Shown here: positions 5,489-5,752 of the stretch, in pieces
How positions within the stretch are numbered: the stretch's first letter is position 1
Layout: each line of letters opens with the position of its first letter
Virus record (IMG/VR): IMGVR_UViG_2778261643_000011
Origin: a virus
Lineage: Duplodnaviria; Heunggongvirae; Uroviricota; Caudoviricetes
Direction: 5' to 3' (one strand)
Length of the DNA stretch: 5,783 nt
Made by a program: the position numbers and the translations under genes
Notes under the pieces: model-generated
Databases searched by the model: none
What the model was told of the DNA's origin: nothing
The model's input: only the letters and a program-made list of their open reading frames with translations

Positions 5489-5752
5489 CAGGGTTTTCGT
5501 CATGGTTAGCGACTTTGCGGCGGTTTAGAAACTGACCATTAAAGTAAATGCAAACGATGATCTGATGATGGTAGCGGCCTAAGAAGCCAGACGCCACGGG
5601 GTATGAGTCGTCCCCCGTCAAAAAATCGACCGCAGAGTGTCCCCGTCTGTGTATTAGGGAACGGGGAGGCACTACAGGTAAGGGCGCTGGTTCGATTAAC
5701 CAGATGAGCGAGAAGGGGCCTAGACTGGCCCCCTGAATCTCCAGACAACCAG

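Follow-up and report, generated by a model that had tools for sequence, protein, structure and literature searches.

A probable tmRNA-derived coding module without a detected tRNA-like half in a P1/P7-type phage-plasmid and in phages of several families

The usual view of transfer-messenger RNA (tmRNA) is that of a machine whose tRNA and mRNA parts are inseparable, whether it is made as a single molecule or from two pieces held together by base pairing, and known trans-translation needs a covalently or base-pair-linked alanylated tRNA-like domain. The tmRNAs of jakobid mitochondria are natural partial forms, which have a tRNA-like domain and no tag frame. In phages, ssrA genes were listed only in mycobacteriophages, Bacillus phage G and DS6A, the last with the tRNA-like domain only (Hudson, Lau and Williams, 2014, PMC4131195), and tmRNAs detectable by ARAGORN were reported in 2.3% of phages, with marine phages accounting for most of the two-piece type (Buchholz et al., 2022, PMC9004378). 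In this study, a 5,783-nucleotide (nt) stretch of viral DNA (IMG/VR record IMGVR_UViG_2778261643_000011, called the window below), which by its homology is a P1/P7-type phage-plasmid, was found to carry a ~175 nt element at about 5493–5667 on the plus strand, which is very probably a tmRNA-derived coding module that keeps only the message and the pseudoknots. No description of this module was found in the full-text literature by tag peptide, phrase or family name, the subscription literature lying outside the search.

The module consists of a 5′ domain, a resume context of TAAAT directly followed by GCA, a 10-codon tag frame with its stop codon, and two tandem H-type pseudoknots; this layout is identical in every copy of the family, for which 137 loci were assembled with pattern scans. 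In the window, the module is intact and does not differ from the copy in the closest relative. Its parts, including two of the four stem-loops (H1 to H4) that an earlier note on this DNA had pointed out, are:

5493–5549, plus strand: 5′ domain of the module, as defined by the invariant columns of the alignment.
5550–5582, plus strand: tag frame GCA AAC GAT GAT CTG ATG ATG GTA GCG GCC TAA (ANDDLMMVAA and stop), as placed by the Rfam tmRNA_permuted alignment.
5596–5630, plus strand: pseudoknot A, with stem 1 (S1) formed by 5596–5601 and 5613–5618 (= H1) and stem 2 (S2) by GTCG 5607–5610 and CGAC 5627–5630.
5596–5618, plus strand: hairpin H1, ACGGGG 5596–5601 with CCCCGT 5613–5618, read from the sequence.
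5631–5667, plus strand: pseudoknot B, with S1 formed by CGCAG 5631–5635 and CTGTG 5647–5651 and S2 by 5640–5646 and 5661–5667 (= H2).
5640–5667, plus strand: hairpin H2, TCCCCGT 5640–5646 with ACGGGGA 5661–5667, read from the sequence.

The tag frame opens with a GCA resume codon at 5550 and closes with TAA at 5580–5582; neither a start codon nor a Shine-Dalgarno sequence accompanies it, and an in-frame UAG lies eight codons upstream. Exactly 10 codons and a stop are retained in 136 of 138 family copies, which encode at least 20 distinct tag peptides (e.g., ANDDVVLMAA, ANDEQFLAVA, ANEEMYLAVA, and ANDDLMLMAA). When single-base codon changes were followed on a minimum spanning tree of the unique tags, 23 of 41 were synonymous vs. 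22.6% expected (P = 3.5e-6), while the other two frames stayed at expectation (6 of 42 and 8 of 39 synonymous). Synonymous changes included CTG/TTG at the first position of leucine codons, and the stop codon also changed, from TAA to TAG. The tags end in -MAA, -VAA, -AAA, or -AVA behind hydrophobic residues, and such C-termini fit the E. coli ClpXP degron space mapped experimentally (bioRxiv 10.1101/2024.01.29.576913). The frame, therefore, has the GCA resume codon, the hydrophobic -AA type end and the in-frame stop expected of a tmRNA tag. We conclude that the tag frame presumably is, or very recently was, translated; because it bears amino-acid-level selection yet lacks a start codon and a Shine-Dalgarno sequence, a trans-translation-like route appears the most plausible one. 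The statement of the earlier note that no open reading frame (ORF) explains the region held for proteins, as the antisense ORFs are not conserved, but not for this 10-codon tmRNA-type frame, which lies 14 nt upstream of H1.

In the 5′ domain, GTTTTCG, CGAC-TTTGCGG, TTTAGAAAC and the TAAAT right before the resume codon are invariant, and the alignment likewise showed an invariant resume context of TAAAT with the adjoining GCAAACGA. The domain resembles nt 16–34 of E. coli ssrA and the GATTTTCGTG of bona fide permuted tmRNAs (TTTTCGT), and its ...AGCGAC-TTTGCGG... resembles the ...TTCGACGGGATTTGCGA... of E. coli ssrA. A 3-bp UCG/CGR stem with a loop of 3–14 nt is possible in nearly all of the 57 variants of the 5′ domain (the exception being L217), and an upstream pseudoknot equivalent to PK1 is tentatively placed there. 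As a separate observation, the invariant 5′ motif (A)GTTTTCGTC (5493–5501) is the reverse complement of codons 3–6 of the host ssrA tag, GACGAAAAC(T) (ssrA nt 96–104, L244), the complementarity extending over 9 nt in the P1 type and 10–11 nt in the lambdoid types. Antisense pairing of the motif with the host tag codons was considered as an idea only and set aside, since 171 of 1000 shuffles of the P1 module equalled the 9-nt match. In the P1-like copy L106 (~2300–2500), a 38-nt deletion fuses the 5′ arm of H1 to H2 (CACGGGGTTGTCCCCGT) and the 5′ domain is replaced; this degenerate variant possibly arose through recombination between the repeated arms.

The two predicted H-type pseudoknots downstream of the frame, of which pseudoknot A has an A-rich third loop (CAAAAAAT), correspond to the pseudoknots that flank the tag in tmRNA. 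In a MAFFT alignment of 57 non-redundant sequences, 91.5% of cells were paired and both-side changes occurred at 13 of the 20 pairs; none of 500 shuffles reached the observed pairing and covariation, and slid controls paired at most 49%. A 37-sequence set without any P1-type or ECBP1-type member gave 95.3% paired cells and both-side changes at 12 of the 20 pairs. Covariation was seen in both stems of each pseudoknot. A-S1 occurred as CGGGG/CCCCG, GTGAGG/CCTCAT, and GCAAGG/CCTTGT, and A-S2 as CCGA/TCGG, CCAG/CTGG, and CTAG/CTAG; B-S1 had C-G, G-C, and U-A at one and the same pair, and B-S2 was represented by four sequence types (GCCC/GGGC, CCCGT/ACGGG, CCCTGA/TCAGGG, and GGCGGGAG/CTCCCGCC). Since the P1/ECBP1-type subgroup lay one column out of register relative to the majority type in the MAFFT alignment, a covariance model of the region downstream of the stop codon (R1) was built from non-P1, non-ECBP1 sequences; its sole match in the window was 5580–5674 (22.3 bits, E = 0.0023). 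By inspection, the P1/ECBP1-type sequences follow the same pattern (B-S1 GCAGA/TCTGT, ATGGA/TCCGT, and GTGGT/ACCAT; B-S2 TCCCCGT/ACGGGGA and ACCCCT/AGGGGT).

All four stem-loops of the earlier note are present in the sequence where it had placed them, and H1–H4 all appear in the minimum-free-energy fold of 5590–5735. The z-scores of this fold were only −2.3 (plus strand) and −3.0 (minus strand), so thermodynamics alone is weak evidence. The comparison that the note had proposed was decisive for H1 and H2, which covary far beyond chance in the 57 homologues, and the idea of a conserved, functional RNA structure is upheld for these two hairpins. That H1 and H2 use the same hexamer pair in swapped order is true of the window, but outside the P1 lineage the arms are unrelated, so that the identical swapped arms are peculiar to this lineage. 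In relatives, the A-S1 and B-S2 helices were CGGGG/CCCCG with GCCC/GGGC, GTGAGG/CCTCAT with GCCC/GGGC, or CTGGG/CCCAG with TCCCCG/CGGGGA; as the two helices share no sequence in other lineages, no alternative pairing is conserved. A search for a conserved riboswitch or attenuator gave no Rfam cis-regulatory, riboswitch or leader match and no terminator-like site after the hairpins. Right 3′ of pseudoknot B, family members often have R-N-C-C-A (ACCCA, AACCA, or ATCCA) or RCACA, which recalls the tRNA 3′ end that follows the pseudoknotted acceptor in the tRNA-like structures of plant viruses. A CCA-like 3′ end at this place was rejected as a candidate, as it occurs in some lineages only and can mostly be put down to the next cassette stem, which starts at this point.

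The assignment to tmRNA was further evaluated with Rfam and ARAGORN. In a permissive Rfam scan of the intact relative, tmRNA_permuted matched with 26.1 bits (E = 0.003), aligned across TAAAT and the adjoining GCAAACGATGATCTGATGATGGTAGCGGCCTAA; the same model scored 27.4 bits in phage CS01 and 33.5 bits (E = 2e-4) in phiEa2809, and the scans of the latter two also gave weaker alpha- and beta-tmRNA matches over the module. The tmRNA models were the sole Rfam matches over the module and were aligned across the tag frame. Consistently, bona fide permuted tmRNAs called by ARAGORN carry ...TAAATGCAAACGA... and GATTTTCGT, as the module does. At gathering thresholds, Rfam had no match in the window, and ARAGORN called no tmRNA in the window, in the intact relatives or at any of the 137 family loci, and no tRNA in the window; on other viral contigs, the program has no difficulty in calling permuted tmRNAs that share this resume context.

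No acceptor stem (G3-U70), T-arm or 3′ CCA of a tmRNA was detected by ARAGORN or Rfam, and the arrangement of a two-piece tmRNA was not seen either, as a DicF-like region and a terminator, and no acceptor piece, lie upstream of the module. A hidden tRNA-like domain was searched for in the P1-like plasmid, in the CS01 genome, in the 3-kb non-coding region of phiEa2809 and, by T-arm pattern, at the 137 loci, and was rejected. The whole 99,950-bp plasmid gave no tmRNA-like or tRNA-like match at E ≤ 1 beyond the module and three ordinary tRNAs, and the whole 48-kb CS01 genome, which has the module, gave no tRNA-like sequence at E ≤ 5. Near some copies, tRNA-like cassettes are found upstream or downstream, depending on the phage, and are absent from others, with none in P1 or CS01; since they have no fixed position, the module is best described as a tmRNA without the tRNA-like half. 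At 27 of the 137 loci, nearby tRNA-like hairpin sets not called by ARAGORN were noticed (L005 2960–3070; L240 2806–2875; L043 and L055 beside the module). The phiEa2809 cassette contains GCGGGTTCAACTCCTGC, which is identical to the E. coli ssrA T-arm at 16 of 17 positions, and Det7 has an acceptor-like GGTGAGG/CCTCGCC and a T-arm ~130 nt upstream of the module. These hairpin sets could be separate acceptor pieces in some phages.

A BLAST search with the module stretch found ~73%-identical copies in ECBP1 and Bp4 (Schitoviridae), phiEa2809 (Ackermannviridae), pAh6-C (Chaseviridae) and CS01 (Drexlerviridae). The CS01-type module matched 493 of 50,697 phage records; in 378, the match covered at least 80% of the module length. 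The carriers span at least five families (Punavirus, lambdoid phages, Drexlerviridae, Schitoviridae, Ackermannviridae, Chaseviridae) and include HK620, CBA120, IME11, and Det7, almost always with no feature annotated at the module. The lambdoid copy matched 670 of 5426 complete E. coli genomes (~12%), at 568 plasmid and 151 chromosomal places, nearly all of the listed matches being unannotated at the module. Same-strand tRNA genes follow within 2 kb downstream at 70 of the 137 loci. In the lineage of the window, the module stands ahead of the phage tRNA-Asn and tRNA-Thr genes, and in lambdoid phages it stands in the late leader after tR′, amid stem-bounded cassettes. In the Aeromonas phage pAh6-C (L006 2400–2680), it lies between two copies of the intergenic repeat cataactcgagNg...ctctatggtatgttta and looks like an inserted moron-type unit.

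The surroundings of the module in the window were assigned by homology to the P1-like records. Positions 5280–5720 are 100% identical to the E. coli P1-like plasmid NZ_CP122822 (99,950 bp), 97% identical to phage P7 and 94% identical to phage P1. In the curated P1/P7 order, dmt is followed by the Pban promoters with a divalent C1 operator, a 'dicF-like region', ~450 nt without annotation, tRNA-Asn, tRNA-Thr and eventually ban, an annotation that puts the module inside the C1-controlled ban/tRNA operon. The remaining features of the window are:

2336–3262: large ORF, hrdC/RdgC.
3259–5277: large ORF, dmt, bifunctional methyltransferase.
5252–5297, plus strand: Pban promoters and divalent C1 operator, by homology to the curated P1/P7 annotation.
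5340–5488, plus strand: region resembling a small RNA (sRNA), the 'dicF-like region' of P1, from the P1 misc_feature and a terminator scan.
5674–5720, plus strand: 5′ half of a long stem-bounded cassette truncated by IS2, holding H3 and the phage half of H4, by comparison with the intact relative L003.
5687–5703, plus strand: hairpin H3, CTGG 5687–5690 with CCAG 5700–5703 and loop TTCGATTAA, read from the sequence.
5715–5732, plus strand: hairpin H4, GGGGCC 5715–5720 with GGCCCC 5727–5732, read from the sequence.
5721–5783, plus strand: left end of IS2 (left inverted repeat), from the homology break, the copy number and the published end sequence.

The C1 operator sequence ATTGCTCTAATAAATTT lies at 5268–5284 and an inverted copy at 5279–5295; a simple promoter scan gave no score to the Pban region 5252–5297. 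From this context, Pban would drive a leader that contains the module. Between the two, a terminator scan found an intrinsic-terminator-like hairpin (5461–5480) followed by T8, which ends the dicF-like region. The dicF-like part itself (5340–5437, plus strand) matches lambdoid phages (mEp460, Stx2c phages, and PPompW) at ~81–83% identity independently of the module; no Rfam DicF match was obtained for it, and it is probably a separate phage sRNA. Two sub-threshold matches were also recorded: a 94-aa ORF at 1626–1910 (minus strand) with a borderline PAAR motif (26.0 bits vs. a cut-off of 27, E = 1.1e-5) and, past the tRNA genes in the ban-operon leader of the intact plasmid (L242 46346–46466, minus strand), an STnc100 sRNA match (37.8 bits vs. 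47, E = 9e-5).

Homology to every P1-like record ends at 5720, and 5721–5783 was found 100% identical in 4589 of 5426 complete E. coli genomes, with a median of 3 copies. In L238, the same left-end sequence precedes a transposase ORF, which we take to be IS2 OrfA; the window stops short of the transposase gene. The end string TAGACTGGCCCCCTGAATCTCCAGACAACC is printed in papers on IS2 (PMC3299598, PMC3219604), and 5721–5783 is, by these comparisons, assigned to the terminal inverted repeat of IS2 (IS3 family). The 5720/5721 junction of phage and IS2 was absent from the best-matching complete E. coli records (the highest-ranked ones, all ending at 5720). The insertion severs the adjoining stem 50 nt downstream of the module and splits the leader from the tRNA and ban genes.

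H4 straddles this junction, its GGGGCC arm being phage DNA and its GGCCCC arm part of the IS2 terminal repeat, and is an accident of the insertion; as a terminator or structural element it was rejected on account of the phage/IS2 junction and the lack of a T-run. H3 borrows three bases of a 16-bp stem, in which ACAGGTAAGGGCGCTG (5674–5689) pairs with CAGCGTCCTTACCTGT ~60 nt downstream in the uninterrupted relative L003 (by sequence and fold), and forms in the window only because IS2 took away the partner strand. Most P1-like copies have GTGTGATTAA and not TTCGATTAA as the loop of H3. A T-arm of a truncated tRNA, suggested by the T-loop-like TTCGATTAA, was ruled out, as H3 has a 4-bp stem and a 9-nt loop where a tRNA needs a 5-bp T-stem and a 7-nt TΨC loop, is not conserved, competes with the 16-bp helix, and coincides with no tRNA called by ARAGORN or Rfam. 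The single cluster of four hairpins seen by the earlier note thus dissolves into the pseudoknot stems H1 and H2 and the IS2 by-products H3 and H4, and its suggestion of a protein-binding hairpin array finds no support.

Homologues of the IS2-interrupted stem occur among the stem-bounded cassettes of lambdoid late leaders. The cassettes have the form 5′-CACAACAGGTAAGRGCATTG ... 40–90 variable nt ... CAGTGCTCTTTCC(G/T)TTGTG-3′ and flank the module in lambdoid late leaders and P1-like phages (window 5674–5720; L003 3395–3470; L030, L031, L043, L055, L094, and L097), their stems being kept while their contents differ (are swapped) between phages. Phage lambda itself presumably carries one such cassette after tR′. 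Possible roles of the cassettes are those of processing stems or exchange sites; alternatively, they may be degenerate tRNA-like elements. Within the interrupted stem, the inner 8 bp (5682–5689 with L003 3453–3460) are GGGCGCUG/CAGCGUCC with G-U as the third pair, which is G-C in the P1-like sub-lineage L020, L101, and L103; this stem recalls the tmRNA acceptor stem GGGGCUG/CAGCUCC, and no CCA stands behind it.

As to what the module does, we lean towards a composite account, in which the phage RNA enters or competes with host trans-translation in lytic growth, sets its own degradation-type tag and needs a charged partner. The RNA would be made once C1 repression lifts, through read-through of the terminator at 5461–5488, and ribosomes would read the tag frame in a trans-translation-like reaction. 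Since the RNA itself cannot be alanylated, it must depend on a charged tRNA-like partner, for which host Ala-tmRNA with SmpB would be the most plausible candidate. Host ribosome rescue would thereby be redirected or competed with during lytic growth, and rescued products would gain a hydrophobic tag that the phage specifies and that has Ala-Ala or Val-Ala at its end. The chances that the tag is actually used are about even. A stronger version, an active 'headless' tmRNA coding piece that re-programs host ribosome rescue and gives rescued proteins a phage-chosen tag, is possible but doubtful. Such a piece might be loaded on stalled ribosomes with, or piggy-backed on, host Ala-tmRNA and SmpB, or might use an unorthodox acceptor from the adjoining stem, GGGCGCUG/CAGCGUCC in the P1 lineage, whose third pair is G-U as in tmRNA.

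Several observations weigh against reading the module as a working piece of tmRNA. The tRNA-like domain that known trans-translation depends on was not found, nor was a conserved free strand that could pair with an acceptor piece. The best scores stayed below the Rfam thresholds (26.1–33.5 vs. 47 for RF04321, 21.9 vs. 50 for RF01849, and 17.2 vs. 84 for RF01850), RNAalifold found only invariant pairs and no covarying fold in the 5′ domain, and the complementarity of the 5′ motif to the host tag codons does not exceed chance in the P1 type. The strong terminator-like hairpin with T8 (5461–5488) separates Pban from the module, a minus-strand ORF over the region has a protein-family match (see below), and the synonymous-excess test was based on a spanning tree and not on a full phylogenetic dN/dS model. 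Finally, all functional steps of the mechanism are inferred from sequence.

A decoy or inhibitor, i.e., a tmRNA mimic that titrates SmpB, S1 or stalled ribosomes and shuts down host trans-translation without serving as a template, is rather unlikely. It would agree with an RNA that has no tRNA-like domain and hence is not chargeable, and with the likeness of the 5′ domain (...AGCGAC-TTTGCGG...) to E. coli ssrA, the mimicry possibly including an SmpB-contacting CGAC...TTTGCG element. As summarized in PMC4131195, a tRNA-like-domain-only molecule inhibits tmRNA, perhaps by titrating SmpB (Mao et al., 2009), and partial tmRNAs can therefore act as inhibitors. The decoy, however, leaves the amino-acid-level constraint, the strict 10 codons and the retained stop (even through the TAA-to-TAG change) unexplained, and the nucleotides of the mid-tag vary freely, as would hardly be expected if a target for sequence-specific RNA binding lay there. 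Coding-type selection on the tag also speaks against a processing or stability scaffold, in which the pseudoknotted leader would serve as RNase entry or protection for the tRNA precursor and tmRNA ancestry would be irrelevant, as does the invariant resume context of TAAAT and GCAAACGA. This scaffold would suit a module that is usually found in front of tRNA clusters on its own strand (70 of 137 loci), amid cassettes that look like processing stems, but it is contradicted by CS01, which has the module and no tRNA gene anywhere, and we consider it distinctly improbable. It is less probable still that the module is a non-functional relic, a decaying captured ssrA fragment or an integration scar. 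Prophages with ssrA as their integration site are known to carry ssrA fragments (PMC4131195, PMC9004378), and the P1-like copy L106 has suffered its 38-nt internal deletion; however, the same truncated architecture recurs in at least five phage families at 70–80% identity, compensatory changes occur in four helices, the frame is intact in nearly all copies (136 of 138), and the module is not near integrases and is without the ssrA 3′ end that att sites carry.

The earlier note had considered mutually exclusive pairing of the shared H1 and H2 arms possible, as in a riboswitch-like or antitermination switch; such a device would control downstream expression. In the P1 lineage the arms are truly identical and swapped, with a terminator upstream and regulated genes downstream. 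This identity is, however, missing from all other lineages, where no alternative helix is conserved; each helix sits in its own H-type pseudoknot, locked by a covarying second stem, and neither an Rfam riboswitch or leader match nor a terminator-like site past the hairpins was found. Such a switch is therefore extremely unlikely. Hardly credible at all is a small minus-strand protein (phrog_27020 family; 'hypothetical protein' in RefSeq) encoded across the region. The minus-strand ORF 5539–5748 does match phrog_27020 (E = 2.9e-17), and SJ46 and JL22 carry hypothetical protein annotations at the module, but the start and length of the antisense ORF vary (82 aa in P1, 110 aa in the closest relative), among 90 unique modules even the best antisense frame is open in just 21, no Pfam match was obtained, the curated P1 record has no coding sequence annotated there, and 1-nt indels in the cassette distinguish close relatives. 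RefSeq WP_157895434 and phrog_27020 correspond to the antisense ORFs 5336–5503 and 5539–5748 (both minus strand) over the sRNA-like and tmRNA-like region and, on these grounds, look like annotation artefacts.

The module occurs in classic model phages and their relatives (P1/P7, lambdoid HK620, T1-like, N4-like, and Vi1-like) and was missed by standard tools; annotators would gain a new RNA family, and spurious 'hypothetical proteins' (phrog_27020) would be accounted for. If the tag is used, phages have an undescribed way of manipulating ribosome rescue and proteolytic tagging, and the template could be supplied in trans, which bears on how the ribosome selects the resume codon. If the headless reading is true, template and tRNA function would come from different, unlinked RNAs, an arrangement so far undescribed. 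If the module is a decoy, it would represent an RNA that naturally inhibits trans-translation, and this pathway is being pursued as a target for antibiotics.

Compared with the one-piece tmRNA of E. coli (ssrA, RF00023), the module has the same GCA resume codon, a 10-codon tag running from ANDx to hydrophobic residues, Ala-Ala or Val-Ala and a stop, H-type pseudoknots after the frame, and a 5′ element resembling ssrA nt 16–34. In contrast, no acceptor stem, T-arm or CCA was found for it, only two pseudoknots follow its frame, its length is ~175 nt vs. 363 nt, its resume context is TAAAT vs. TAGTC, and, unlike one-piece tmRNAs, it is undetected by ARAGORN and below the Rfam thresholds. With the two-piece permuted tmRNAs of Alphaproteobacteria and marine phages (e.g., Melnitz, PMC9004378), it shares a nearly identical resume context, (A/G)TAAATGCAAACGA, and the TTTTCGT motif upstream of the tag; the two-piece models (tmRNA_permuted and alpha_tmRNA) are its best Rfam matches, and phage carriage of tmRNA genes has precedent. 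In two-piece genes, however, an acceptor piece (T-arm, 3′ strand, and CCA) lies upstream and the coding piece has a GGGG acceptor strand at its 5′ end; ARAGORN finds both of them, whereas the module has neither. The ssrA of mycobacteriophage DS6A (PMC4131195) is also a partial tmRNA, but a mirror image of the module, as its tRNA-like domain is kept and its tag frame lost. The phage tRNA clusters (P1 trnA/trnT; ileZ-argN-argO of Stx phages) occupy the same niche, on the same strand and under the same promoters, and it is the tag frame and the pseudoknots that distinguish the module from them.

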